Part shown: piece after piece, positions 1-53,973 of the stretch | How the letters are laid out: each line of letters begins with the position of its first letter | How positions within the stretch are numbered: the stretch's first letter is position 1 | Assembly (NCBI GenBank): GCA_010405405.1 | Contig: MU004235.1 | Coordinates: 1,809,539-1,873,538, forward strand | Direction: 5' to 3' | Length of the DNA stretch: 64,000 nt | Source of the DNA: Microthyrium microscopicum | Lineage: Eukaryota | The notes under the pieces: model-generated | Seen by the model: only the letters and a program-made list of their open reading frames with translations | What the model was told of the DNA's origin: nothing | Databases searched by the model: none | Program-made: the position numbers and the translations under genes

Positions 1-719
1 AAACTTACTATAACCTAAATAGTTAGTATAGTAATAAGTTTAAAGCTATTAATAAGTTAGAAGGTATATTAAGTATATACTTAATTTATAAATACTATTA
101 GATTAAGCAATAAATCTACTATATATTTTACTATTATTATCCTTTATTTAGTAACTCTATAGTATAAGCATAAGTTTAATATAGGCTAAGAAAATAACGT
201 ATATTTAGTTAACTATAGAGATATAAACTATATTAAGTATATAATAACTATCCTCTATTATTATTTTAGCTTAAACTAAGTATATACTTATTAAAAAAAC
301 TTACTAATAGTCTTATTCTTATAAGAGGAAACTTTAATATATACTTTACCTAGATTCTTCTTAATTAGTAGAATTTTTAGCTAACCTAGCTTATATTTAG
401 TATATATAAAGTATAGGTTACTAGATATATACTTAAAAGAATAAAACTAAGGTTTAAATTATCTAATAGACTTAAAAATATAAGCTATTTTCTACGCTAA
501 GTACGTATAGAATATACTATAAGTATATTTAAATTATAAATAAAGGTTAATTACGTTATATATGCTATTAGTATAATAATAGGCTTAATCTTAAGGTATT
601 TTTAGCCTATACTAAGTATAAAATAATCTAGTATAGGCTAGAGTTATAATAAGTATAAGATAGAAAATAGAATTAAATCTTAAAGAGATAAATATTAAAA
701 GGTTTATTATAGCTTAAGA

Positions 720-1270
720 TAAGTAAGTAACGTAGATATATATTTACGTTACGCTTCTTCTTCTTTAAGTAGAAGACGCTAATTAATACGTATTTATATT
801 ATACTTTTTCTTTTTTAAGAAAAAAACGCTAGTTAATATATACCTTTATTATATAATTTTTTTATTAAAATAAAGAAAGGAAATAAGCATATACTAAAGT
901 TATACTTCTTATTTTTTAAGTATAAAAGGTAGTAAATATATACTTAAGCTACGCTCTTTTTTTCTTAAGTAGAAAAGGTAATAAGTATATAATTAAATTA
1001 TACTCTTTTCTTAAGTAGAAAAGGTAATAAGTACGTACTAAAGTTATATTTTTTCTTCCTTAAGTATAAAAGGTAATAAGTATATATTTTAACTATGCTT
1101 CTCCTTCCTTAAGTATAAAAAGTAATAAGTATATACTTAAGCTACGCTCTTTCTTTCTTAAATAGAAAAGGTAATAAGTACGTACTTAAGCTATACTTCT
1201 TCTTTCTTAAATATAAAAAATAATAAGTACGTATTTAAGTTATATTTCTCTTTCTTTAAGTAGAAATAAT
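720..1270 (+). repeat. Degenerate ~48-49 bp tandem minisatellite, about 11 copies
   Basis: Unit like ttaagtagaaaaggtaataagtacgtacttaagctatacttcttctttc; anchors at ~965, 1011, 1060, 1109, 1157, 1206, 1256. Confidence 0.8.
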
Positions 1271-1958
1271 TATAATATAATACTACTAATAGTTAAAAGT
1301 AAGTATACTTTTATTTAGTACGTACTACTAATTACTTTTAAAGCTTTATTTTATAAATAGTAAAATAAAATTATATATATAGCTTAGTACGTACTATTAA
1401 AATAAACTACGCTTTACTTTATTTTTTATATTAATTTAATTATAAGAACTAGAATAAAGTTTATTTTTAATTTATACTACTTAATACTTTTAAAATAATA
1501 TTATAAAAGTATAAATATAAATTAATAATAAAAGTATAATATATATTAAATCTTTATTTAATTTTTTATAATTTATATTTTTTAATAATTATAGTTAGTT
1601 ATAACTATTAATAAAAAATATAAACTTTATATATAATATTAACTATTTTAATAATATTCTTATATAAGTAAAAAAAAAAAATAAAGCTTTAAGCTTAATA
1701 TATATTACGTATTTCTTTTAAAATATTATTTTATAAAATAAAAAAGAAATTAATAGAAAGCTTAGTACGTACTATAGTACTATTAAACTATTTTATCTAT
1801 TCTTTATATTAATAATAAATAGCTATAACTACTAATTTAAAGCTAATACTTAATATATACTATTATATACTTTTAAAATATTATATAAATTTAAAAATAA
1901 ATTAATAATAAGCTTAGTATATACTATAAACTTACTTTATTTTTTAAGTTATAATATA

Positions 1959-2618
1959 NNNNNNNNNNNNNNNNNNNNNNNNNNNNNNNNNNNNNNNNNN
2001 NNNNNNNNNNNNNNNNNNNNNNNNNNNNNNNNNNNNNNNNNNNNNNNNNNNNNNNNNNNNNNNNNNNNNNNNNNNNNNNNNNNNNNNNNNNNNNNNNNNN
2101 NNNNNNNNNNNNNNNNNNNNNNNNNNNNNNNNNNNNNNNNNNNNNNNNNNNNNNNNNNNNNNNNNNNNNNNNNNNNNNNNNNNNNNNNNNNNNNNNNNNN
2201 NNNNNNNNNNNNNNNNNNNNNNNNNNNNNNNNNNNNNNNNNNNNNNNNNNNNNNNNNNNNNNNNNNNNNNNNNNNNNNNNNNNNNNNNNNNNNNNNNNNN
2301 NNNNNNNNNNNNNNNNNNNNNNNNNNNNNNNNNNNNNNNNNNNNNNNNNNNNNNNNNNNNNNNNNNNNNNNNNNNNNNNNNNNNNNNNNNNNNNNNNNNN
2401 NNNNNNNNNNNNNNNNNNNNNNNNNNNNNNNNNNNNNNNNNNNNNNNNNNNNNNNNNNNNNNNNNNNNNNNNNNNNNNNNNNNNNNNNNNNNNNNNNNNN
2501 NNNNNNNNNNNNNNNNNNNNNNNNNNNNNNNNNNNNNNNNNNNNNNNNNNNNNNNNNNNNNNNNNNNNNNNNNNNNNNNNNNNNNNNNNNNNNNNNNNNN
2601 NNNNNNNNNNNNNNNNNN
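1959..2618. other. Assembly gap (660 N)
   Basis: Run of N characters. Confidence 0.99.
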
Positions 2619-2823
2619 TAAGTTAATTATATAACTATAACTAGGCTTAGTTTATACTTAGTTTATATTTAGTATATATATAGTTAAAGTTAAGTTTATA
2701 TTATTAAATAAGTATATAATTAACTTTCTATAAGTTAATTATATAACTAAAACTAGGCTTAGTCTATACTTAGTTTATATTTAGTATATGCATAGTTAAA
2801 GTTAAGTTTATACTACTAAATAA
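2619..2823 (+). repeat. ~112 bp tandem duplication with RIP-type differences
   Basis: Copies start at 2619 and 2731 (taagttaattatataact...); differences include gtttatac/gtctatac, tatatatatag/tatatgcatag, tattattaaa/tactactaaa. Confidence 0.8.
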
Positions 2824-3019
2824 TATTTATTAGCTAAAAGTTAACTTCTTATTTATTAACTATATAACTATAACTATACTTAGTTTATACCTAGTATATG
2901 CTTAGTATATGCTTAGTATATACCTAGTTTATATCTATATAGAAGTAAGTATATATTAGTAAATAGAACTTATTAGCTAAATAAAAGTTAGAAGCTTTAT
3001 ATTTAGTATATGCTATAGT

Positions 3020-3690
3020 CTTCTTTTTTAAAAATCTTATATATATTAAAAGTTCTACTAAAAGAAAGAGAAGTATAGCTTAAGTATATACTTATTATTT
3101 TCTTTATTTTAATAAGAAAGCGCCTAATAAAGGTAGGTACTAACTAGCGTTTTCTACTTAAGAAAATAGAGCATATCTTAAGTACGTACTTATTACTTTA
3201 CCTATTTAAAAAAAAAGGAATAGTAATAAGCACGTGCTTAGTACCTTTTCTACTTAAAGAAGATAGAGTATACCTTAAGTATATACTTATTACCTTATCT
3301 ATTTAAAGAAGAAGAAGTAATAATAGGTACGTACTTACTACTTTTCTATCTAAAGAAGAGAACGTATAATATAAGTACGTATTAACTAGTATCTTTTACT
3401 TAAGAAAATAAAGTATACTCTAAGTACGTGCTTATTACTTAATCTAGTTAAAAAAGAAGGAGTATTAATAAGTATATACTTATTACCTTTTCTACTTAAA
3501 GAAGAGAGTACGTAATATAAGTATATACTAACTTATATCTCTTAGTAGAGAAGATAGTTTATATCTTAAGCTTATACTTATTATCTTATTTACTTAAAAA
3601 AGAAAAAGTATTAATAAATACGTACTAGCTAGCATCTTTTAGTAAAAAAGATAATTTATATTCTAAGTATATGCTTATTACCTTTATAGT
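3020..3690 (-). repeat. Same ~48-49 bp minisatellite in inverted orientation, about 13 copies
   Basis: e.g. aaagagaagtatagcttaagtatatacttatta (~3065) and ttattaccttttctacttaa (~3480) are reverse complements of the 720-1270 unit. Confidence 0.75.
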
Positions 3691-6600
3691 ATATATTTAA
3701 TATAAGGAAATTTTAACCTCTTAGTATTACTTTAGTATACTTCTTCTTTTAGCTTCTCTTTCCTCTTCTTTCTCTTTTTTCTTTTTATTATTATTATCTT
3801 CTATATTAGTAATTATAAGTAATATAAGTAACTCTACTTTCTTTTTCTTAATTTACTATTTAGCTTCTTATTTTTATAATAATTATTATTCCTTTATATT
3901 CTATATTAGAAGTAAAGAACTTATTACTTTTTACTTTAAGCTATATATATGTAAAGGTAATAATATATTTATAATAGATATAAAATTAGTATAGAAGAAA
4001 AATACTTATAGAGTTAAATTTTAAGTTAATAATACTTATAAGCTTAGCATATACTTAATCTATATTTATTTACTAACTAGAGTAGATAATATTTAAGGTA
4101 GTAATAAAGAATATATTAGTAGTATTAGTAGAAAAGAAGGCATTTTAAAATATACTAAGCTTATATCTAATATATACTTAGTCTAAGTAATAGCTAAGTA
4201 TATATTACTAAGGTAGGCTATTAGATAGTAAGTAGGGGTTAATTTATCTTATATAGAAAGAAACTAACGTTTTATTCTTTACTTATATTAAGTATTCTTC
4301 TAATATATATATTCTAAAAGTTTAGTTACTTCTATTAGCGCTATATAGTTAGTTAGGATCTTAATACTTATTAACTTAAACTTACTATTAAGTTCTTAAA
4401 CTATATAGTATAATCTATATATAGTTAGTATAGGCTATTATAGAATAATATAATATATACTTTAATATTGTATTAAATAAAGATATTTACTTTCTAATAA
4501 TATAATTCTTAATATAATAGCTTAATTTAATAAGGTTATTTATTTATTTAGCAAGTAGCTATTAAGTAATATTAATTTTAGACGTATAAAATATAATTCT
4601 TAAAAGAATCTACTTAATTGTCTTATACTTAAAAAATAATTTTATCTTAGAGTATATTAAGTATATAACTTATATATTACGCTATATACCTTCTTTACTA
4701 TAAGCCTCCTACTAAATAATATTAAGTTTATTTATTAGTACGTACTTAAGAAATTTCTTTATTAGATTTTGCTTTAAATAGACTTTATAGAACTTTAATA
4801 TGTACTTAGTATATTTAATTTAATTTTTACTATTATCTTTTATTTTAAAATATAGTCTAAGACTTAGACTATTATTAGTATATATCTACTATAAGCTTAG
4901 AATAAGTAAACCTTTTACTTATTTTAAGTATATATTAATAGTAATAGCTTAGATTCTAAAGTAGCTAATATAGCCTTACTATATAAGTATATAAGTAGTA
5001 TTACCTAGTTATATAAATAGCTTTATAAATATTTACTAATATACCTTAATAATATTAGTTATTATAAATACGTAGGTATAGACGCAAATTTCTATATATT
5101 AAGGTTAGTATATACTAAACGTAATATAAAATACTTACTTTAGCTCCCTAGATTATAGCTAATAATAAAATATATATTCTAAGGTCTTTATATTATATAA
5201 AATATAAAGTCTATCTAAAATACTAAAACTCTAGTAAATACTATAACTTAAGTATAAGTAAAGCATATAATAAAGTAATTATCTACTAAATTCTTAATAT
5301 ATAAAATTGTCTAAATCTACTAGTATTTAGTACTATTATAGGCTTTATACTATTATATAAAGCGTATCCTTAGCTTATAATTAGCTTATATAGAACCTAT
5401 ATAAAATATAAAATAAACCTTAAAGACTAGTACTATATAGATACTACTTAAGTTATTTATAGTAAATTTATACTCTAATCTAATTAGTATTTATAAGTAA
5501 TAAGTAAATCTTAACTAGACTTATTATTTAAAGAGCTTTATAAACCTCTTAAGCCTTCTAAAATAAAGGAAACCTTTTTATATAAGGTTAGTATATATTA
5601 TAGTTAGAACTAAGTTATACTTAATATATACGTTTTATTATATTAAGTATATTATTTTTAGTAATAACTTAACGTATTAAGTTAGAGTACTCCTTTAGGA
5701 CTAATATAGGTAGTAGTAAATAATAATTATATGCTTTATATATAATAAGTAATATAAATAGATATTTTTACTAATACTTTAATAAGTAAACGTTAAACGT
5801 AGTAGGATATTATTATTCTAGTAGGTCTCTAAATATATAAATTAATATATTTAGTACTTCGTAAGTAACGTTATAGTATAGTAATTAGCTTATTCTTAAG
5901 GTAATATATATATATAACTTAATTAGCCTATAATAAATATAAAGCAAGTTTATAATAAGCTATTTTAATAACTTAAAGTTATATTTATTAGTATTAATAT
6001 AAGTTATAAAGTAAAATTTTCTATTATATAATATATAAGTATAGTAATAACTAAGAAACTAATTCTATATATATTATTAGAAACTAACTAGTTATATCTT
6101 ATACTTAATATACTTTATATTAGTTAAATAATTAGAATATATACTATATATATACTAGAATTAGTTACTTATAAGTTATTATATATAGAGAAGTTAAACT
6201 TTTATATTAATCCTATACTATAATAAAGAAGCTATATTTATTAGACTTAGTATAGGTTAAATATAAGTTAATAATAATATACCTTTTTATTCTTTCTCTT
6301 AACTATACCTCTAGCTTTAATATATATCTTTATAATTTATAAAGCTTATATAACTTATTTATTTTACTAAGATTAATATAAGAGTACGCTAGATTTATAT
6401 TAAGAATATAAAGATATTAATACTAATAGACTTAAATACCTAAGTATTTCTAATAATAATAATAAGTACGTACTATATTATTATTTTTACTAGTATAGAG
6501 TAGAAATTTAAGTATTATAGGCTTAGTACTACTAATACTTTAATAACTAAACTAAATCTAAGTATAATTAGTATATACTTAATATCTTCTATTATCTTAG

Positions 6601-8440
6601 CCTTATGAATAATATAAACTACTTTAAAATATTATTTATTATTCTTAAAGCCTCTAGGTCCTTCTTCTTTATTATAAGTATAAGTCTAAAGTATACTAGC
6701 TATAGATTCTATAATAGAGATACTATATAAAGAATACCTCTATTAGTAATATATAAATAAAGAGAGAATATTATATATATTTAGTATTTAAAGACTTATA
6801 TAGATTTAATATTATTACTATTTATAGTTAATTTATACTAAGTAAGGTATTCCTATATATTATATTAGTATAGTATATACTAAGTAGAGATATATAAATA
6901 GCTTTTAGTTAGCTTTAATTAAATTTAAATACTTACTCTTCTTTATCTTTATTCTTAACTTTTATAAGTTTAGTTTTTAAGAATATAAATAACATAGATA
7001 AAGTATATATAAATAATTAGCTATAAAGCCTAAGTTATAATAAGAGTATAGTTATATAGTAACTTAAATATATACTAAAGTAATAATATAAAATTAATTA
7101 GATTAGTTATAAGGTTTAATATAGCTATACTATTATAATTAAATTCTATATACTAGGATTAGTTTATAATAAGCATATATTAACTATCTACTATAATAAT
7201 ACTTATATTACGTAATATACTAGTTTATATACTTTTATATAAAGGCTATATATACTACTTTTATATATATAATATATAGAGGTATAAATTATATAGAGGT
7301 ACTATGCTACTATATGCTAAGAGTAAGCTATACATAGGCCCTTATGTAGTAAAGACTACTAATTTTTCTAGCGTGATTTTCTAAGGGTTAGCGGAACCAC
7401 GTCGTCGGTCGCGCGGCTTGGCCAGACTGCCAATCGATGTCTTCCTGTTGCGACCGAAAGCTCTCGGAGGACCAGATGGCTTTCTGTCTACAGGAAGATA
7501 ACTTGAGGAGTAGAGCCGAGAGAGGGGCGGGTTATCTTGCCATCTGCCAGTGCCAAATGTAGTATGTTTGGTGGTTGAAGTGCATACACCACAGCCTGCT
7601 TTTGTGTAACCCAACTTTCCTCTCGCAGAATCTCTTCAAGCTTGCGCATATGCTTTGGCGATTCCCACAGTCTCCTCAGTTGACCCGTTAAATCGTCATC
7701 TCAACCGTTGTTGATCCTGCAGCCAATTCCACTTTAGTCTTGGAATCTAGGAGGACTAGGATCCAATCTTGGAGGCCATAATTGCCCATTTGAACCATAC
7801 ATCAACTATCAACTGACAGCCCCTTTGCGCCCTTCTACAACACGACATTCTGATCGCGCCCAGGTCAACTTCGCCTTTTCCACTGTTCAGACCATCTTTA
7901 CCTTGTTGCTCAAAAAGGTTTCCCCGCTTACAGCCTAACTGTCGGTTGCACAACTACCACTGCTTATACGGAGCCCTTGAAAGAGCCGCACACCTTTGGT
8001 CCACGTTGTCCCCGGAAACAATAACGCTTAGACGACTTGTAGGTCACGGAACGTCAACTTCATCTGCGTGCGAACGTGACTCTTGCAACTCATCTATCGG
8101 CCCAATTTTTACCTTGACGAGAAATCGCACTGGTGACCTCGAGGTTCATTGCTATCCCCCGTCCGGTTCTTCCATCCTGGCCGTGATCCTGGAAACCGGC
8201 AGATAAAACCTCCATTCAACAACTTGAACTGTTAAAGCTTGCAGAGTCAGTGCCCGACCTAGCCAGCAATCCAGTGATCCTCTGATCCAGACTTGTCAAA
8301 CCGTCAAGCCCTTTGGCAAACCTTTGACCAACTACTCTACCCAGCTCTGATCTCCAAGGTCCGCAAAGGGGCACGTACGGAAGGGAAGGGTATCTGCGCT
8401 GCCAGTCGCGCTCCGCTTCCTTCAGCGTATATTAACTTTC

Positions 8441-14435: not shown

Positions 14436-14904
14436 GACTAATAAAATACAATCATGACTACACGAAGAACCTTTATGTTTGCCCAGTACTGCAAAGTGCC
14501 AAAAGACACTGATATCTTTAGCGCATCCAATACAGGAATTCCAAACAGTTATCATACAAACTTGATACTTAGAAACCAACATAAGCTAATCTAGATACCT
14601 ACCTAGGTAGAAGCAAGAGCAACTCCCACAAAGTAGCAACGACTTTTGAAATGCCCCAGAGTAGCATTGATAGACCCAGCAGAACCAGCAGAACGAAAAT
14701 GACATCGGAAGGGTAAAGGCCAAACTCATTACCTCCTTGAACCTGCCAAGAATCCACGTATGCAGGTTCAGGACTTCGGTCTGTTTGGCGTTGTCTACGC
14801 CAACGTTGTATCTCCTCCCCTTTAACCGCCTCTACCCTCTGTGGGATAGAAGAGTTGGCCAGGGTTGGGGAGGTATGCTGGTCTTCATTGCTTACTGCTG
14901 GAAT

Positions 14905-17021
14905 CTATGGAGTATTAGCAGAGTCATTTTCAGCAGTTACTGGGTGATATAACTTTTGCAGGCGGAGCAGGCGGTTGTCTAACATGAGCTGTTCCTTGTC
15001 CAGTTTGAGGTTTGCGATCTCCTTGCCAGATTCGGCCTTTTGCTTCCCCAAGTCTGTTAGCGCCTTTGCGTGGATGACCTCGAGCTTTTGAATGTGGCTA
15101 TGTAGATTGGAGATCTTGGTGAGGAGAGGTTGGACGCTCATGCTGGGAGCTTCTCCACATTTTTTCTTCTCAAGGGCCTGGGATTGGTTAGTATCGTGAT
15201 GTGATCAGTAGTCATGCGTTGCGTATTGACTGGGTCGTGTGATCTTTTCGTGGGAATTTGGAAAGCACAAACACACGTTATGGAAGCGGTGGGAGCCATC
15301 GAATGTGATGGCGCCCACTACTGCTTTTGGTAATGTCGAAGATTGTCGGAAGGATTGGGATAGGGAGACACTTACATCGCGGTACATTTGGAGTTGCCCG
15401 TTGAGTTTCTTGACCTGCTCGCCTGCGGCAGCCTTGCCATCTACCAACTCTTTCTGGAGCGCTTTCCTACCCTCAGAAGAATCGAATTGTTGTAGCTTCA
15501 AAGCCTGGAATAGTCAGCAAAATGTCAAATCTGAAGGCGATGTGGTGACGACCAAAAATGTCATGGAAGCCATCGCATGTGGTGGGAGCCATCAAATGCG
15601 CTGGCAGCCACCGAAGCTTTAAACCGATTTCGAATGCCTTCAATGTGGTTGGGAGTTAGGGAATCTTACCTGCTCGAGCGACCCATTTGTCCTGCGAAGA
15701 TCTGCGATTGTATTATCTTGGGCACGAATGGTCTCGGCTTGCTTTTCTCCGGCTTCTTCGAGGTCACAGATGGTCTTTTTCAAGGCCGAACTGGATTTTG
15801 TCAGTATAGATTACAACGCAACCAGAGCTAACACGCCATGTGGTGAAACCTTGAAACTCCCATCGCATCTGGTGGGAACCATCGAGTGCGATGGGAAATA
15901 CAAGGTTTTTGATTTCATCGTTTGTCTCTAGGAAATGTGGGTTGACACGGGAGAATCTTACCTAGAAACTGTTAGTATACGATTGTAATCCGAGCTAAAA
16001 CGTCTGAAAAGCGCAAATGATCTCCTCAAGGTAAAACCATAAAACACCCATCGCACTCTATGGCAGCCATCGAGTGCGATGGGGGATTTGATTGTTTTGG
16101 TCCCGTCGGATGTCGTCAAGATATTTGGTTTGGCATGGGGGGAATCTTACATCTTCTCAGAATTATACTTCTCAATATCCACCTTCTCGCTCCAGTAATG
16201 CTTCCGGATCGCGGTAATCTCGTTCTGAGCAGTGGAGAGCTTGTGACGAAGGATCGCAATCTCCTTCTCATGAACCTCTTCCAAGGCTTCATGGGCTTCG
16301 ATCGTCATCAACAGCTGGCATTTGTTAGAGAATGGGGGCAAAACTGAGGTTCGCTGGTAGGCTGGAGAATTCTGGCGTGCTCCCATGAACGTCGATAATG
16401 CCCATCGTCTTTGATAAGCAGGAGATGCTCTTCTTGCCATCACACTCGATGATGACGAGGACATCTGATGGCAAAGAAAGCATCCAATGGGAAATAACAA
16501 GTCCGATGGGGAAAACATGACTTCCAAAATATCGCAGTAGATGGCAGCCATCAAAGCAGCTGGGAAGTAAAATTCACCGAAACAAGCTCATCCACCTCCT
16601 CCGGGATGCTCTCAACATCATCGGAATCACTACCAATCATCTCACAATCATCGCTATCGGACCACTCTACAAGCACTGTTAGCTCAACTCCGGGATACTG
16701 AAATAGCGAAAAATGCACAAAAGTCGAGACCCCGGATTTCGGCCATCAAATCATATGGCCAGAAACGCACTTCATCACGCCCATCGACTCTGATGGACAA
16801 GAAGAGAGCTTATCACAAAACACAGATTATGTGGAATGTTGTTTCCAGGAAGATGAAAACATACCAGATTCAGAAGACTCCGCCAACTCACAGAAGCTAC
16901 CCTCCGAACTGCAGTCAGTACCAGAGACTTCCATTCTGGGCACGACGTTCAGGACCTCTGGCTCTGAGGTCCAGCTCATGGCGCTGCTTGGGCGGGAAGG
17001 AATGGTGGGGATAGATGCCAT
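14905..17021 (-). CDS. Orphan ~310-aa protein with acidic N-terminus and coiled-coil C-terminus; exons 17021-16865, 16666-16578, 16314-16151, 15790-15670, 15504-15376, 15177-14905
   Basis: Six introns, each with GT donor, CTRAC branch and YAG acceptor; splicing gives an uninterrupted 933-nt frame (...YNSEKISALKKTICDLEEAGEKQAETIRAQ...). Confidence 0.75.
15178..16864 (-). mobile_element. Six related long hairpin introns (introner-like element candidates): 16864-16667, 16577-16315, 16150-15962, 15961-15791, 15669-15505, 15375-15178
   Basis: 37-nt core aligns without gaps at 16047-16083, 15859-15895, 15569-15605 and 16528-16564, partially at 15288-15312; CCATC-N6-GATGG unit at 16781-16796; three introns start GTAAGATTC. 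Mobility itself is inferred. Confidence 0.6.
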
Positions 17022-29176: not shown

Positions 29177-30193
29177 CTAAACAGCAAGACTTTTCTCAAG
29201 TTCTTTTAAGCTCTTCACAGCATCCACAACAGTCTCCTCGATCGTATGATATTTGATGCCCAGTACCTTTTCAGCCTTCGAACCGTCAAGAGTGTATACC
29301 GGAGGTAAAGGCTGATTTGCTTTGCCTTCAGGGGTAGAGTCGCGAAGCTCTGGAAATTTGTCTCGAATAATATCAACAAACTTTTGGTAGCTATAGTTAC
29401 CACTGCAAACAATAAACCGCTGATTCGCAGCTTCCTCCGACTCATAAGCCTTCAAATGAGCTTGGGCGACGTCACGGGGATCTGTCCAGCAGTAAAAGGT
29501 GGTGTCCGGAACGGTCTTTTCACTGCCATTGAATAGGCGAAAAATATCGGCACTGGATGTGTTCAGCTTGTCCATGCTGTCGACAGAGTGGCGCAAAGGT
29601 CCGTAGACCATGGGTGGACAAATTGTAGTGATGCTGAAGTTCGGCGATTCGTTCTTAACGAAATCCCAAGCCGCATGCTCTGCAAGAGTTTTGGACACTG
29701 AGTAAGCATTTGCCGGATCAGTTGTATGAGCTTCTTCGATTGTCATTGGGTTCCAGTCTGCTTCAGTGTAATTGTAGCCCGGGCGAAGGCCCTTGTTGTA
29801 GTCCAGAATGCAAGAAAACGAAGCAGTCATCACAACACGTTTGACTTTTGGGTTGAACTGCTTGATGGCTTTCAGCATGGAAAGAGTGCCGTTGCGAGCT
29901 GGTTCGAAGAGCTCCTTGTCGTAGTCTTTTGCATTGAGAATGAAAGGGCTGGCCATGTGGACTACACCGTCCACATCCTTGACGGCTTCGTCAAAGGCTC
30001 CAAGAACGGCGATGTTTGGCACTATCACGAAAGAAAGTGCATCACCATATTTGCCATGTGTTTTACGCACTTTTTTAGTGCTGTTTTCGGATCGCACGGC
30101 GGCACGTACGTTGTATCCAGCGCCTAGGAAAGCGTCTAGAACGTGGGCGCCGATGAAACCGGAGGCTCCACTGATGAGGATTGTTTTGGTCAT
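29177..30193 (-). CDS. NAD(P)-dependent epimerase/dehydratase-fold carbonyl reductase (Gre2/aldehyde reductase II-like)
   Basis: SGASGFIG Rossmann motif, VVHMASP, YSVSK catalytic YxxxK, PPMVYGP, DPRDVAQAH; intronless. Confidence 0.92.
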   Translation of the reverse strand: MTKTILISGASGFIGAHVLDAFLGAGYNVRAAVRSENSTKKVRKTHGKYGDALSFVIVPNIAVLGAFDEAVKDVDGVVHMASPFILNAKDYDKELFEPARNGTLSMLKAIKQFNPKVKRVVMTASFSCILDYNKGLRPGYNYTEADWNPMTIEEAHTTDPANAYSVSKTLAEHAAWDFVKNESPNFSITTICPPMVYGPLRHSVDSMDKLNTSSADIFRLFNGSEKTVPDTTFYCWTDPRDVAQAHLKAYESEEAANQRFIVCSGNYSYQKFVDIIRDKFPELRDSTPEGKANQPLPPVYTLDGSKAEKVLGIKYHTIEETVVDAVKSLKELEKSLAV

Positions 30194-31483
30194 TTTGACA
30201 AGGTCTGTAGCGCAGCGAATACGACAGGTCTTGACAATAATGTGCTGCGTGATGCTCAGGATTGAAAAGATGATGAGCTATGTGAAGACGGGAGAATATT
30301 GTTAGACAAGACGATGCCTTTTCCCAGTGAAGTCTCAGATAACTAACGGAATAATGAAGCTAAATCTGTCGGAGGCGTTTATATCTATAGAGCCGAATGA
30401 GAAGATGACTGAGTTAATAGACAGTTCAAATTTTGCCGTGGTGGCTGATCTTATATTCGGTTCTCGTTTCGCAGGGGCATTCTCTTTCCCACGATACAGG
30501 CCACATCTGTTGCAACCAGCACAAGGAACCCATCAATAGCTTGCTAAAACTCCTCTTATCAAAGAGATACGCTGGATGACATCAACTTCGCATAGCCCAT
30601 CAGTGATGATTAGACATTTTATCTTCGGCATAGCCAGCTCAGAATGCTCTAATCCCAGAATTTGAGGTAGAGCCTTGTACAAAGACTGAAAACAGGTTTT
30701 ATGGCAGGATCCGGCAGTTCAAAACCTCACGGAGTACTCCATTGCAGAACCATGGTTTTGCCAAGCTGTCGCTTAATACCCAAGAGATTCATGCTGCTCC
30801 CATATTGGGAAGTTGCAGGGTTTGTTTTTAAGCCTTACAAATGAGCGTTTTCCCTCCACACAAACATGATGTGTCGATCATATCTCAACTGTCCAAATAA
30901 TCCTTGAGACTATGCCGAAATGGCGTGTTGTCTGGATTTTACTTCGTATTCGTTTTGGTACGGCCTGTTGGCATCCTAATTTGTATTAACGCAGCTGAAG
31001 TCGATGTGTTTCTGAACTCACATATACCATATGCCATTGACTTTGAGCTTGGTGACATCATTTTGATTGAAGGATTCTCGCTGCATAGACGACGACGACT
31101 AAGAGAGCTGACGGTAGGTCGCAATGAGTCAATCGAAATCGAGTGTTGTGAAATTGACATGGTGATAATATTTTGCGTCAACATGACAGCAACATGTGAA
31201 CTTTCTAAGCGAAGATTTCGAGGATGACAGCTGATAGCTGACCTCTCAGACTGATCGCAATCAGAACGAAGCAAGGAGCCAGGTTCTGAAAGCTATCAGT
31301 GGGAATACCATGTTGGCATACATGCAGAAAATCCGAACATACCGTAGCTAGATCTGACGTGTATAAATATAGAGACCCAGTCAGACGAACATTTGACTTC
31401 TTTAATATCGAACCATCATCTGAATTAACGCAAATCTTGTGAACCAATCTTAACCAAGATCAGAATCTCACAACAACGAAACT

Positions 31484-32860
31484 ATGGCACCAGAATCCCA
31501 CTTCAAGACCATCAACCCAGCCAATGGGGAGCTGATCAAGTCCTTCCCATCGGCTAATGACGAGGAAGTCCACGCCGCCCTCGACAAAGCGCACGAAGTC
31601 TACACCAAGGACTGGCGCCATCGCTCTGTGGAAGATCGATGCAAGATCATGGGCAAAGCAGCCGAGCTAATGCGCCAGCGTAAACAAGAGCTGGTAGAAC
31701 TCGCCGTCCTGGAGATGGGCAAGACTATCGCCGGCATGCAGTGGGAAGTGGACCTCTCCGCTGATATACTTGCGTACTACGCGGACCATGGTTCCGAGTT
31801 TCTCGCACCAAAGCCGCTACCAGACGCTCCCGGCGCTGTCGTAGTCTCGGACCCCATTGGCGTCGTACTGGCCATTGAGCCATGGAACTTTCCATACTAT
31901 CAGATTGCTCGCGTCGCCGGTCCACAGCTCGTCGTTGGCAATACTGTTTTACTCAAGCATGCAGCTTCCGTGCCACAATGCGCTCTTGCAGTTGAGAAGC
32001 TGTTCGTTGATGCTGGCGCGCCACCAGGCGTGTACACAAATTTGTTTTGCTCGATCTCCCAAGTCAATGATCTCATTGTCGACTCTCGTGTGCGCGGCAT
32101 TACTCTGACGGGCAGCGAACGGGCTGGAGCATCTGTTGCCGAGCTTGCTGGGCGCAATCTCAAGAAAGTCGTTTTGGAGCTGGGCGGATCCGATCCACTT
32201 ATCGTGTTGGAAGACGCACCTCTTCAAGATGCAATTGAGACAGGCGTCAACATGCGGCTATTTTCCATGGGCCAGGCATGTACGGCTACCAAGCGCTTCA
32301 TTGTTGTTGGCAAGGAGCGTGGCCAGATTTTTGCTGAAGGAGTTGTAAAGAAGTTTGCCGAATTGAATGCTGGTGATCCAATGGATCCAAAAACTACGCT
32401 TGGGCCTTTGTATGCTGAAGCAGGTCTCAAGGGACTCCTCGAGCAGGTGGAAGAAGCCAGAGCGGCGGGTGCGACTGTTGTCTGTGGTGGTGGAAAGATC
32501 GATCGTCCGGGATTTTACATGGAGCCGGCTCTAATCACCAACATCGATCGGAAAAACCCTCTGTTTATGAAAGAGACTTTTGGTCCCATTGCATCGCTGT
32601 ATGTTGTCGATAACGAGGAAGAGGCAATTGAGCTAGCCAACGCGACACCCTACGGTTTGGCTTCGATTGTCTACTCTTCAAACCACGAGCGTGCCCAGAA
32701 AGTGGCTAGACAGATTGAAGCTGGTATGGTCTTCATCAACCAGATGTTTACTACTCAGCCTAACTTGCCATTTGGAGGCGTAAAGAATTCTGGTTTCGGG
32801 AGAGAACTGTCTGAATTGGGTATCAATGAATTTATCAACAAGAAGCTTATTAAAGCTTGA
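31484..32860 (+). CDS. Aldehyde dehydrogenase, succinate-semialdehyde dehydrogenase (Sad/GabD1)-like
   Basis: INPANGE, EPWNFPYYQ, LTGSERAG, ELGGSDP (catalytic Glu), GQACTATKR (catalytic Cys), ETFGP, PFGGVKNSGFGREL; intronless 458 aa. Confidence 0.93.
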   Translation: MAPESHFKTINPANGELIKSFPSANDEEVHAALDKAHEVYTKDWRHRSVEDRCKIMGKAAELMRQRKQELVELAVLEMGKTIAGMQWEVDLSADILAYYADHGSEFLAPKPLPDAPGAVVVSDPIGVVLAIEPWNFPYYQIARVAGPQLVVGNTVLLKHAASVPQCALAVEKLFVDAGAPPGVYTNLFCSISQVNDLIVDSRVRGITLTGSERAGASVAELAGRNLKKVVLELGGSDPLIVLEDAPLQDAIETGVNMRLFSMGQACTATKRFIVVGKERGQIFAEGVVKKFAELNAGDPMDPKTTLGPLYAEAGLKGLLEQVEEARAAGATVVCGGGKIDRPGFYMEPALITNIDRKNPLFMKETFGPIASLYVVDNEEEAIELANATPYGLASIVYSSNHERAQKVARQIEAGMVFINQMFTTQPNLPFGGVKNSGFGRELSELGINEFINKKLIKA

Positions 32861-44613: not shown

Positions 44614-46359
44614 CTAATAAATATGGAAATCTTCCAGAGGCGCAACAGGCTCCCTATCATATGCCGCAGCCCAGTCAATGTCTGCAACTCCCTGGCCCTC
44701 CATAACCCAAGGGATATAACATTCACCGACCAAATACCATGCCTTTTTACACGGTCTCAACACAAACGGTAGTTCAAACCCCAGGAAAACACAAATTATA
44801 TCACTAGTAGCTGTTGTCCACGGAGCATATCCACTCTCGTTACCGTTCTGGATAACACAAACCCTCTTATCTTTATTCATTTCGCGCCTCGTCAACTGAT
44901 CAGGTTCTGTCTTCCAATCTTGGTATAGAGAAGACCTCTCATCAACGCACCCAAGTCTCCAGTCAAAACCAGAGATTCTCTTTAGCCACGTTGCTGTGTT
45001 ACCTTTGTCCATTATCGCATATTCTGGATACATGTCCATCGGAGCTGAGAACTTCTCACAATACTTCTTCCGTGCCCAGAAATTTGGCCGCGATTCCCAT
45101 TCTGCTAGCGCGCTGACGATCTTTGGCTGCTCAACGGTATGAAACCGCTTCCCACGTATGCAAAGCCCGCAGCCTTCTAGTGGCGTCAGAAGTGCTTTAT
45201 CGGCAATGCGCTCAAAGCTGGTATTGCTATGGTCACTGGCGCTATACCAGCGTGAAGCGTCTGAGCCGGGACAAAAGGCGGACTGGATGTACCCCGGCTG
45301 AGACAGGTGTCGTAGACATCTCCAGTCAATGGTCCAGCTTGGGAGATGACGACGGTTGGCTAGTTCAATGCCGATTGCTGCCGCGAGAGCTTTTGTTGCG
45401 CCGTGGCTTAGTAGATGGCGCGATATATTTGTGTAGACTTCTTCGACACTGCGGGAGTAGTTCGCCTCCAGGTCAGGAGGTATGTCGCCTTCAAGCAAGG
45501 AAATTATTGCAAAGAGCTTATCGCGCGGGTCCTCGCATTGGTAAGAGGCAGATTCGCACAAAACATTGAACAGATGAATGGAGTTTGTGAGGGTGTCGGA
45601 TCCCGAGGTCCTCGCACCAGTTGTTTGACTTCTCTTGCTCTCCTCAGCATCAGTCCTAAGCATCCCCATTGACCTATGCTCTCTGTTCCCAGAGACACGT
45701 TGCTTGCGTAGTCTGCGAAGATCAGCTGGGAATATCTCCTTCATATTAAGTACACCACCACCACTCGTCACCTGGCTAGCAAGGGCAGTTTCTTCTATTC
45801 TGTTCTTCCCAGCCTGGATCACCAGCCGCTTGGAAAGCAAGACTTCCTGAATCACCCAGGTTCTAGTAAACCAAGGTCGCGACAAAATCATTGCTGCACT
45901 ACGCTTGATGTCCAGAGTCGGATCCAAAGCTTTCGAAATATGCATTCGACTCAAATCATAGGAACTACTGTCTGCTTCGCCAATATAAGCGATTGTCCGA
46001 GACGCACTGCGGTACAGGTCTGCCATAAGTGGAATCTGATGGTTCTTCTCTAATATGCCTTCCTGGTTGATGGACAATGCGTCAACCCATAATATTCTTG
46101 GCCCGTCTTTGGTAAGACTCCATAGCATGTCCTGACAGTTGCTGGTCATGTATAGCACATGTCCGGTTTTACGGTGCCGAATAGTCTTGTCCCGGTCTTT
46201 GGAGCCCCAGGTGTATGAGACCGCTTCATAGACTGGCGAATTATTCAAGCTAACGTGAGAGAAGTCGAAGAGCAGGCTTCCATTCTTGGACCTGGAGGCA
46301 TGTAACAGTCGTATTGTTCTGTTGTCTTCAAGGGGTTGATATTGATACTGGTTTGGCAT
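44614..46359 (-). CDS. HET-domain (heterokaryon incompatibility, Het-6-like) protein
   Basis: YQYQPL..IRLL, YEAVSYTWG, LWVDALSINQ..EKNHQIPLMADLY, RPWFTRTWVIQE, DPRDKLFA, LPSWTIDW, PFVLR..LVGECY..M.G; ATG 46359 chosen as start. Confidence 0.92.
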   Translation of the reverse strand: MPNQYQYQPLEDNRTIRLLHASRSKNGSLLFDFSHVSLNNSPVYEAVSYTWGSKDRDKTIRHRKTGHVLYMTSNCQDMLWSLTKDGPRILWVDALSINQEGILEKNHQIPLMADLYRSASRTIAYIGEADSSSYDLSRMHISKALDPTLDIKRSAAMILSRPWFTRTWVIQEVLLSKRLVIQAGKNRIEETALASQVTSGGGVLNMKEIFPADLRRLRKQRVSGNREHRSMGMLRTDAEESKRSQTTGARTSGSDTLTNSIHLFNVLCESASYQCEDPRDKLFAIISLLEGDIPPDLEANYSRSVEEVYTNISRHLLSHGATKALAAAIGIELANRRHLPSWTIDWRCLRHLSQPGYIQSAFCPGSDASRWYSASDHSNTSFERIADKALLTPLEGCGLCIRGKRFHTVEQPKIVSALAEWESRPNFWARKKYCEKFSAPMDMYPEYAIMDKGNTATWLKRISGFDWRLGCVDERSSLYQDWKTEPDQLTRREMNKDKRVCVIQNGNESGYAPWTTATSDIICVFLGFELPFVLRPCKKAWYLVGECYIPWVMEGQGVADIDWAAAYDREPVAPLEDFHIY

Positions 46360-46871
46360 TTCTGAGATGAGGTTTTTTATCTCGATCGTTCTTGAATCCG
46401 GGAGATGACAAAGAGGAGAAAACAGAGCGACATGGTCCCCAGTCAAATGGTCGATGCTGCGCCTCCCCTCCCCGGATCAATATACCGCGAGTGCTGATTT
46501 GCGCGCAAGGCATGGTAAAGTTCGAGCCTTATATCACCTATTGAACTTCAACCTGTATTCAGATTTCTGGTGTTTGCGGTAAAGCGATAAATGTGTGGCG
46601 ATAAGCTTCAGGTTGGATAATTTTATGGCCCAATTTGGAAGAGTGCATGGCGGCTCACATTCCCTCCCGTCTGCGCCTTCCCATAACCTGCAATACCATC
46701 CAATCATTCACGCGGCCTCCGAGTGTTACAGTTTCACACTCGTTTGCCGCTTTTCTACTTCCCAAAGTAAAGAGGATGGGACTCTTATTATTTAGCTTGC
46801 AACATGTCTTCGAACTCATCCACTTGAGCTGGAGAAATTCTCCCTCAACGACAAAAGAACAACCTACGCAG

Positions 46872-51450: not shown

Positions 51451-52926
51451 TTTGCAGTTGTATAAAGAGGGGACCAATTTACGACGCACAATTGAGAGAT
51501 AATTTGGTAAATGGTGATACTGCAAGATCCGCGAATTCATGTAAAACCATATGCCATTGTTTAAAAATGCGACGCTCAGCTAGGTAAGTATTATATAAAT
51601 CGTGTCATGGTTCTGAATCCTTCGAACTTTAATGCCGTGCTGCAGGGTCTGGAACTTCTCCAGGTGCTAGGTTGTAAATGGGAAGGATTCGATTATCACT
51701 CAAATCCTGCGGCACAGTCAAATCTGTTCGAAATAAGACTTTGCGGCGCGTTTAGATCTGCTCGGACATCCCGGCAGCTTTGCCATGCATTAATTAAGAC
51801 TGCTATCAACCGCCAACTATCATTTGATCTTGCAACATGATTGGGTCCATCTGCGCACGCACATAGTTTCTGAACGTGTTTTCTATGTTGTCGTAGTGAG
51901 TTAAAATTCATGAAAACTTGGCTGCAAAGATCAGTGGGTGTCTATTAGGCAGACTACCAGGTAGGTAGGTAGGTAGTTAGATCCCAAGGGCCCTGCACCA
52001 TAACTTGATCAATGATGGTCTATTCGATTCTCCGGGCAATGTTGATTCAATTTATCCTACTAAATTGAGTATCTAGCGAGCATTCACAAATTCAGAAGGC
52101 ATGTCGGAATATTTGATAGCAGCTTCTGGCCATTCATTTGGCCTACCCAGCTTATAAAGAGGAGAGAGGAAGTCTTGCCGAGAAGTTGACGTGGTCGCAC
52201 ACACTTCAAACATTTCTACTACACTGGTTTGCGAAATGTGGTGAACTCTGACCCCCTCCCCAATGGGATTATTTTTGCAGAATACAACCAACTATATCGA
52301 GAATAGCTCATTCCTTTGTGGTAAAGGCTCTGGCCTATGTCCCAATGTTCAGATTCCGTCCCTCTATAAAAACCCTGATTGGTCAGATTCTGCAAAATTC
52401 ACATGTTTGGAGACACTAGGGTATGTACAAGACGTTCAAGATTCGTTCATACTCAAAACTACCTCCTATATGAAGAGTGGGAACTATTCTCAGCTCTGGG
52501 GCTGCTCAAGAATCATCATATGGATTAATTCAATATCTTTGTGTCCGCTGGCGTGTCTTGTTCCATGCCTCAAACCAACTGGTGAACCTGGTTGCGAGCT
52601 TGTAGTCGAACTTCAGCCTCGCGCGCTTAAATTTCTAAATCTGGAGACAAGATCCCTGCAGCTAATAGGCCGTGGCTTATTTAGCGGACAGGAGTGGCGG
52701 CTAAAATGCGGCAAAAGTCTTAGCGATAGTCGGGGAGGTGGACTAACTGATTGGGGCCTAGATCATTGCCTGATATCAGGTACCTTGCCGCTCGAAATAT
52801 TTTGGTAGATATTTGAACACTTTCACCTCACAAACATCCCCAACAAACATCTTCAATGAACCCGCTCAGGAAATATCCCGACATCCTTTACATTCTCTTT
52901 GCTTCCCAATTACCAATTAATTCATC

Positions 52927-53973
52927 ATGTTGCCCTGCTTGTACGAAATTGGCCCAACATGGAGCAGTAACAAAAACACAGATGTTGAACTGAATGTACT
53001 CATTGGCAACAAACATGTTCAGGTCGAACTAAAAGCCGAGAAGTTCGAATCTAGCCCCAAGCTACATAACGAATACCTGCTCCATGTTCAACGCTCGGAT
53101 CCAGATTATTTTCCAGAAGCAGGTGACGACGACGAGCTCGACACCGACCCAATTAAAGACTTCTACAGCTGGGCCATGGAACCTTTCTCTACTATGTTCC
53201 ATGAAATGGACCCCCTAGACCAGGATAGACAGTATACTCTGCAAGACTGCTTATATCCCGAAAAGGTCCTCTACACCTTACAAGCTGATGGGGATATTCT
53301 GAGTCCAGTTCAACTTCCGTCCACTTCAAGCTTTCGAAATGTTGGAGTTAGGCTCCCTGAAGCCCAAAGCAATCTCAACTCCCTTTTTCCAGTTTTTAGT
53401 CCCAAAGAAATACATGTTCCCCTCGCCCCAGGCACGAACACCCTGCCAACACAGCTCAACAAGGTCTACGTCGGCGGAGAACGGCCATTCTATCATTTCA
53501 AACGACTGCTTTCCGGAGATGTCAGTATGACTGTCACAGAAATATCAACTTACGCAAAGATCCTCGCCGCAGCGTTAGGGGAAGAAGTTCGGATATCTCG
53601 CCTTTTTGGTCTTGTCAAGGACGAGCAAACATCTCGTATAGTGGGATTGCTCTTATCCTACATCGAATGCGGACCTCATGGTCCACTAAGCTGCGAGCGA
53701 AGAACTCTCACCGATATCTCTCTTTGTAAAAAATGGCTCGACCAGATCTCAAATTCGCTACATGCTCTGCATGCGAACAACATCGCCTGGGGCGACGCCA
53801 AGCCAGCGAACGTTGTCATCGACGAGCATGATGATGCATACTTGATTGATTTTGGGGGTGGATATACAGCTGGATGGGTGGATAAGGAGTTGCAAAACAC
53901 CATTGAGGGCGATCTACAAAGTCTCAGTCGTATTGCTAAGTTCCTGACCCCAGAGGTTAAACATGCAACTTGA
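52927..53973 (+). CDS. Fungal protein kinase-like protein with a reduced C-terminal kinase fold
   Basis: Intronless 348 aa; LHANNIAWGDAKPANVVID catalytic-loop variant and LIDFGGG. Confidence 0.8.
   Translation: MLPCLYEIGPTWSSNKNTDVELNVLIGNKHVQVELKAEKFESSPKLHNEYLLHVQRSDPDYFPEAGDDDELDTDPIKDFYSWAMEPFSTMFHEMDPLDQDRQYTLQDCLYPEKVLYTLQADGDILSPVQLPSTSSFRNVGVRLPEAQSNLNSLFPVFSPKEIHVPLAPGTNTLPTQLNKVYVGGERPFYHFKRLLSGDVSMTVTEISTYAKILAAALGEEVRISRLFGLVKDEQTSRIVGLLLSYIECGPHGPLSCERRTLTDISLCKKWLDQISNSLHALHANNIAWGDAKPANVVIDEHDDAYLIDFGGGYTAGWVDKELQNTIEGDLQSLSRIAKFLTPEVKHAT

Follow-up and report, generated by a model that had tools for sequence, protein, structure and literature searches.

A cluster of related long introns in one gene of Microthyrium microscopicum, a candidate degenerate introner-like family

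We describe a cluster of long introns in an orphan coiled-coil-like gene of the dothideomycete Microthyrium microscopicum, located on the reverse strand of a 64,000-nt stretch of contig MU004235.1 (hereafter the window, to which all coordinates refer). Numbering the introns i1 to i7 in the direction of transcription, i3 to i6, probably together with a decayed i2, are on balance best understood as an old and degenerate family of introner-like elements (ILEs) that multiplied locally within one gene, a reading that we favor with moderate confidence. An introner-like family had been proposed in a first-pass annotation made from the sequence alone. Four observations speak for it here: splicing in RNA, unusual length, homology from the donor inward between unrelated exons, and repetition at other loci. 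Its extent is reduced to four members plus a weak one, all of them degenerate.

Results

The introns of the gene were compared with a 5,773-nt contig from a public run (X5), for which the RNA label is only a guess although the contig shows splice joints. This contig matches the window with 0 mismatches and has joints across i1, i3+i4, i5, i6 and i7 (Table 1). The joints are of the GT..AG type, so that i1, i3+i4, i5 and i6 are canonical spliceosomal introns. They bear out the predicted junctions of i1, i5 and i6 and, as a single 360-nt skip, the outer junctions of i3 and i4, but not those of i2, which is retained. Motifs of the CTRAY type, as expected of branch sites, lie 11-16 nt upstream of the acceptor in the introns. 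The six long introns have the lengths originally given and leave the frame open throughout, but the gene does not consist of long introns only: the joint across i7 reveals a seventh, ordinary intron that had been missed. The family introns (165-198 nt) are about 3-4 times longer than i7 (49 nt), the sole RNA-verified comparator for ordinary intron length, and in their own gene they therefore resemble ILEs in being longer than regular introns. The 5,773-nt contig also extends more than 4.3 kb leftward of position 14500, which would correspond either to transcripts overlapping the left neighbours or to a merger during assembly.

Table 1. Coordinates of the gene, its introns and palindromic cores, and of other long open reading frames (ORFs) of the window. 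Fold z of whole segments was computed against 100-150 dinucleotide shuffles.
Feature	Position	Strand	Length (nt)	Signals and RNA evidence, or Pfam match	Palindromic core	Fold z, whole segment	Fold z, 5' part
Gene, coding region	14892..16979	-		frame open across all junctions; region covered by RNA contig with 0 mismatches
Intron i1	16667..16864	-	198	GTATGT donor; RNA joint skipping 198 nt	short CCATC..GATGG palindromes only	-1.95
Predicted intron i2	16315..16577	-	263	weak GTGAAT donor; retained in RNA contig	copy at about 16514-16565, 25 nt from donor; inverted core piece at 16436-16451	-1.2
Intron i3	15962..16150	-	189	removed jointly with i4 (360-nt skip)	16047-16083, near-perfect 18+18 palindrome	-2.5	-3.4 (hairpin)
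Intron i4	15791..15961	-	171	removed jointly with i3 (360-nt skip)	15859-15895, with outer 8-bp stem	-3.4	-4.7 (hairpin)
i3+i4 composite			360			-4.8
Intron i5	15505..15669	-	165	RNA joint skipping 165 nt	15569-15605	-0.6	-0.3
Intron i6	15178..15375	-	198	GTAAGT donor; RNA joint skipping 198 nt	15288-15327, left part only; right arm lost, different hairpin formed	-3.5	-2.8
Intron i7	14905..14953	-	49	ordinary, GT..AG; RNA joint skipping 49 nt		-0.1
Long ORF	44614-46476	-		HET (heterokaryon incompatibility)
Long ORF	31454-32860	+		aldehyde dehydrogenase
Long ORF	29177-30277	-		NAD-dependent epimerase/dehydratase
Long ORF	52921-53973	+		partial protein kinase domain

Relatedness among the introns was scored as the z of a local alignment against shuffles. 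It is highest between i3 and i4 (z 23.0), followed by i4 and i5 (15.1), i5 and i6 (9.2), i4 and i6 (8.0), i3 and i5 (5.4), and i3 and i6 (5.3). The predicted i2 scores 4.5-6.9 against i3, i4 and i5 and 0.6 against i6; i1 does not exceed 3.3 against any intron, and i7 does not exceed 0 against any of the six others. A profile of i3-i6 built with nhmmer recovers i2 at E 0.0045 and i1 at E 8. Judged by sequence likeness, the family in this gene is thus composed of four clear members (i3-i6) and one weak one (i2), alongside one unrelated long intron (i1); six related introns had been claimed initially, and i1 drops out of them. Neither the i3-i6 profile nor scans for the core and its motifs found any further copy within the 64-kb window, intergenic DNA included.

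The part common to i3-i6 runs from the donor through a leader of about 75 nt into a palindromic core. The sequence GTAAGATTC opens i3, i4 and i5, as already described in the first-pass annotation, while GTAAGTGTC opens i6. The distance between the donor and the start of the core is 79 nt in i3, 78 nt in i4, 76 nt in i5 and 75 nt in i6, an offset that is constant within 4 nt. In the case of i3 and i4, the alignment covers both introns entirely and includes the branch site and the acceptor.

The 37-nt quasi-palindromes reported at 16047, 15859, 15569 and 16528 (forward strand) are present at exactly these positions, with the right half at 15288, and so is the outer stem aaaccttg/caaggttt. The motif CCATC-N6-GATGG occurs four times per 64 kb, always in this gene, against 0.03 occurrences expected, and an 18-nt core allowing up to 3 mismatches is likewise found four times in the window against 0.02 expected; none of 100 shuffles reaches four in either case. 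At the DNA level the core consists of nested palindromes, which counts in favor of a rival explanation in which a short palindromic dispersed repeat, either MITE-like (miniature inverted-repeat transposable element) or a recombination-prone palindrome, lands anywhere and survives in introns, the long introns being ordinary ones swollen by secondary insertions. Collemare et al. indeed report species whose high-copy "introns" are repeats inside regular introns (PMC3609843). A repeat of this kind, however, does not account for the likeness of the donor and the 75-nt leader beyond the palindrome, for the near-constant distance between core and donor in four introns, for the full-length likeness of i3 and i4 with their branch site and acceptor, or for the lack of any copy in the remaining 62 kb. 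We consider it unlikely.

The marks of a DNA transposon were not found either. Comparison of the first 45 nt of each intron with the reverse complement of its last 45 nt, evaluated against shuffles, detected no terminal inverted repeats (TIRs) in the six introns or in the i3+i4 composite, the best case being i5 (matched by 43 of 500 shuffles). The flanks of the introns share no repeat, and the ambiguity of the joints is 0-4 nt and inconsistent; the absence of a consistent target-site duplication (TSD), noted from the start, is therefore upheld. With neither TIRs nor TSDs, the introns fit neither a DNA-transposon introner nor a MITE, which also speaks against the dispersed-repeat explanation.

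Predicted folding separates the introns from their surroundings only in part. Neither the five exons tested, whose fold z lies between -0.4 and +0.5, nor random 190-nt segments of the window (38 segments, mean -0.02, with 2 of 38 at -2.5 or lower) differ overall from their shuffles. More stable structure than expected, another property of ILEs, is predicted for i3, i4, i6 and the i3+i4 composite; the proposed comparison with shuffles and with an ordinary intron (i7) thus comes out in favor of i3, i4 and i6 but not of i5. Separate folds of the 5' parts point the same way (Table 1).

These stable predicted hairpins could alternatively mean that the introns contain a functional RNA, such as a snoRNA, a microRNA-like hairpin or a regulatory element, for which the gene chiefly serves as host, as might be suspected from several long introns in a poorly conserved gene that is well expressed (contig depth 368 in X5). 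This we find very improbable. In Rfam, 5 matches were obtained at E <= 10, but all fell far short of their gathering scores (the best, a microRNA model, has 24.7 bits where the gathering score is 62); the hairpin is lost in i5 and altered in i6; and the exons form one open frame with a positive codon score. A conserved intronic RNA element, which the first-pass annotation had offered as its second option, accordingly finds no support in the Rfam matches, all below threshold, or in covariation, of which there is no net signal (see below). When the shortening of the donor-to-branch path by the hairpin was compared with chance, shuffled interiors collapsed to the same degree, and 6 of 100 shuffles matched even the best case, i5.

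The exons offer little to suggest that they were copied together with the introns. Nucleotide likeness does not exceed z 2.1 in any of the 15 exon pairs, and the best of 10 peptide comparisons (e4/e5, z 2.5, 21 of 1,000 shuffles) is not significant after 10 tests, in agreement with the first-pass statement that the exons are not repeats of each other. No flanking exon was thus found copied along with an intron, as a segmental duplication within the gene would entail. Such a local history could nevertheless be imagined as the tandem duplication of an exon-plus-intron module of about 293 nt in a repetitive coiled-coil gene, with exons that diverged past recognition and an intron core kept by selection or gene conversion. 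The donor-to-donor distances from i6 to i5 to i4 (294 and 292 nt) have a regularity that hints at this scenario, e4 and e5 measure 121 and 129 nt and show the weak peptide likeness just mentioned, and segmental events make up half of the same-gene duplications published so far (PMC3609843). The scenario has to reconcile this with the complete lack of nucleotide likeness between exons, with i3 and i4 adjoining without an exon between them, and with the presence of the repeat at many other loci; moreover, published same-gene duplicates are ordinary in length and stability (PMC3609843), whereas the introns described here are long and structured. We regard it as distinctly unlikely.

Our view of the remaining genome comes from contigs of the source DNA (run X3) matched to the locus at 80% likeness. 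A total of 58 records matched, falling into identity classes of 8 (>=99%), 12 (95-99%), 18 (90-95%) and 20 (<90%), and a fraction of 0.67 of the matched sequence continues into unlike sequence. Summed depth reaches 25,821 at 16064 and 20,464 at 16084, compared with 1,080 for the contig of the locus itself, which puts the depth over the core at about 19-24 times the single-copy level (expressed as extra single-copy equivalents). A common A variant at 16084 is carried by 13 of these contigs. In at least five contigs (929-9,170 nt, with single-copy depths of 876-1,025), a stretch of 65-87 nt matches the core region with 9-15 mismatches.

Some outside copies inform on where the likeness ends. Two X3 records turn unlike from 15963, 2 nt past the i4 donor, one X3 contig matches i4 over 15879-15963, and one X5 contig has a GTAAGATTTTCC-type donor within 1 nt of the offset seen in i3, followed by unrelated sequence. 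At two outside sites (one contig and one record pair), likeness reaches a donor and then stops, which fits an introner-like family and counts against a repeat that lands anywhere. On the other hand, several outside copies are, by eye, longer in their center by about 38 letters, with an AGGAAC-like spacer separating the inverted units, and the copies in this gene appear by eye to be two different deletion forms of a longer palindrome, i3 missing another part than i4-i6. Extra letters and differing missing parts of this kind are those seen in unstable palindromes and count in favor of the dispersed repeat.

Searches beyond the species gave no relatives. A 24-nt core pattern had 0 matches in metagenomes. 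A donor-gap-core pattern returned 12 metagenomic loci; their match to the profile was confined to the 13-mer used as query, with E values of 0.055 or worse, and we rejected them as chance. A 57-residue reading of i4 compared with 1.84 billion representatives had 3 matches, all repeat proteins with a short FPLDVNGYHF-like motif, judged by eye to be chance.

Discussion

Several observations weigh against an introner-like family. Length alone does not define it, since i1 is long yet not significantly related to the others. The conservation of i5 and i6 is limited to their 5' ~110 nt, plus generic 3' signals, so that likeness extending up to the exon borders is seen end to end only for i3 and i4, besides the two outside donor sites. 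The regular donor spacing between i6, i5 and i4 hints at duplication of an exon-plus-intron module. In the RNA contig, sequence is continuous over 16151-16666 and i2 is retained; we think that i2 is probably a poorly spliced intron with a weak GTGAAT donor, and as all runs consist of assembled contigs, which show presence and not absence, the missing joint does not prove that i2 is never spliced. The fold of i5, in its 5' part as in the whole intron, is no better than that of shuffles. A consensus fold of the four leaders (-7.47 kcal/mol) has a covariation term of +1.75 and hence no net support from covariation, a comparison with little power given four sequences. Copies outside the gene are 77-86% identical over 65-87 nt, far from near-identical. 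Among the records of the RNA run, 12 of 14 are less than 95% alike and hence other copies, which are unspliced, one of them at depth 632, which counts in favor of the dispersed-repeat explanation. Some copies are therefore inefficient as introns, or lie outside introns, or are antisense. Finally, two genome-wide screens list M. microscopicum with 0 introner families (Gozashti et al., 2022, PMC9860276; Gozashti et al., 2025, PMC12130899, Dataset S1).

These screens relied on BLAST likeness near both intron ends, dropped pairs with alike host proteins and kept families of at least 4. Because of such filters, a decayed family alike mainly at its 5' end and with members in the same gene would be missed. 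A decayed family in a species scored as empty by two large screens would point to a blind spot for old families, for likeness restricted to the 5' end and for copies within one gene.

Introner-like elements of Dothideomycetes were reportedly described by van der Burgt et al. in 2012. They are canonical introns present in tens to hundreds of copies, with about twice the length of regular introns and a lower free energy, and they decay towards ordinary introns (PMC3609843, PMC4457414). The introns of M. microscopicum, a member of the same fungal class, share with them canonical signals, about twice the usual length or more, stable predicted structure, multiple copies, a lack of transposon marks and a tendency to decay, and genes with two ILEs are on record. 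This likeness concerns length, structure and canonical signals. Unlike these families, the copies described here are far more diverged, appear to number tens and not hundreds, occur four or five times in one gene with two of them abutting, and in some cases keep only their 5' ~110 nt.

Two other fungal systems are close in part. The internally symmetrical introns and stwintrons (introns in which a splice element is interrupted by another intron) of Hypoxylaceae proliferated without target-site duplications, and some genes contain two copies (Fekete et al., 2021, PMC8469720). They resemble the present introns in their proliferation, inverted-repeat symmetry, seamless integration and shorter derivatives that arose through internal deletions between short repeats (PMC8469720). 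Yet theirs are terminal inverted repeats of 45-55 nt around TTTCTAGAAA, with many nested twin introns (PMC8469720), in a family of Sordariomycetes, whereas the present introns have asymmetrical termini, an internal palindrome at a distance of 75-79 nt from the donor and no split splice signal. Same-gene intron duplications have also been documented in fungi (Collemare et al., 2013, PMC3609843); half of them lack duplicated exons and were explained by transposition inside a single transcript. They likewise consist of related introns inside one gene, but as described there neither their length nor their free energy is unusual and they are confined to one gene, while the introns reported here are long and structured and their repeat is found at other loci too.

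Transposon-type introners, which Huff et al. are said to have described in 2016, also involve a repetitive element that provides splice signals and gives rise to introns, but here no TSD or TIR was found. Ascomycete introner families are outliers in that they lack transposon marks (Gozashti et al., 2022, PMC9860276). Among 7 papers that mention both M. microscopicum and introns, none deals with introns of this kind in the species, judged by title and abstract.

The arrangement of i3 and i4 is unusual. The two introns adjoin directly as AG|GTAAG, i3 ending in ...CTAG and i4 beginning immediately with GTAAGATTC, which leaves a zero-length exon between them. Each has complete signals of its own, so that neither interrupts a splice element of the other as in a stwintron. 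Removal is possible in one 360-nt step or in two, because excision of i3 rebuilds the same donor. Long introns of Drosophila contain recursive splice sites, or zero-length exons, and the i3|i4 junction is similar in that an acceptor AG is directly followed by a donor GTAAG and that removal of the first half rebuilds the donor. It differs in that the two parts are complete introns of a fungus, homologous to each other and about 180 nt long, and stepwise removal is here only a possibility. Most simply, the back-to-back pair would have arisen through insertion of a complete intron unit at a splice junction that was already there.

If the introner-like reading is correct, the elements would be spliceosomal introns copied as whole units, each with its own donor, branch site and acceptor. 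Copying may have been RNA-based, through reverse splicing or retrohoming, as proposed for ascomycete elements without transposon marks; the absence of terminal repeats and of target duplications fits such a route. It would also have been strongly local, because four to five copies in one gene among a few dozen across 12,493 genes, the number listed for the species in introner-screen data, cannot result from random spread. The central hairpin may assist the spliceosome where an intron is over-long, or may have had a role in copying.

A more specific version, which we put forward as a doubtful conjecture, holds that the cluster is the footprint of spliceosome-mediated copying in cis: excised structured introns would have been reverse-spliced into the transcript or the transcribed DNA of their own gene, once exactly at a splice junction. 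Insertion at the junction would account for the zero-length exon and would at the same time build in a recursive splice site. If true, this would provide natural evidence for intron gain by reverse splicing, long proposed and never demonstrated, and for a preference for the gene of origin.

The origin of new spliceosomal introns is still debated, and fungal ILEs are the main example of a route without transposon marks. Two rare configurations met in this gene, several copies in one gene and abutting whole introns, bear on whether copying is local and guided by the spliceosome. Should a genome-wide census show an ordinary repeat, the finding would be of minor interest.

Gene annotation and surroundings of the window

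The gene model of the first-pass annotation runs from an ATG at 16979 to a TAA at 14894-14892 and encodes 284 residues once i7 is removed, with the C-terminus ...LQKFQQ. The public model (P0001) has 295 residues, treats i3+i4 as a single intron and starts at an ATG at 16551, within predicted i2 and inside its palindromic core, in the reverse-strand stretch 16436-16565 that holds the core copy and the inverted core piece. A simple codon-usage score, for which eight long ORFs of the window served as training set, is +0.36 bits/codon for exons 1 and 2 of the 284-residue model and -0.01 bits/codon for the annotated reading inside i2. The first ~78 residues of P0001 are a read-through of element-derived sequence and have no codon-usage signal. 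The start codon of P0001 is probably mis-set, and for annotation purposes the public protein model begins within element-derived sequence.

Database searches covered exon 6 and the annotated P0001. Exon 6 has a single protein match, 100% identical, which is P0001 itself, labelled as a hypothetical protein of M. microscopicum. A search for homologues of the whole of P0001 returned P0001 alone among 1,460 candidates, and a Pfam scan of the same protein found no family above the cut-off.

A DNA run of another organism (X6) contains a 208-nt contig identical to window positions 15955-16162, at depth 2.5. It is most likely a carry-over between libraries and not shared sequence, and it was not used as evidence.

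Positions 1-7000 of the window have a G+C content of 14-19% (28% over 6001-8000) beside genes at 43-50%, with six overlapping stop-free frames at 1854-2651. This looks like a repeat region degraded by a process of the repeat-induced point mutation (RIP) type. The long ORFs of the window that match Pfam families (Table 1) are ordinary gene content of a filamentous ascomycete.

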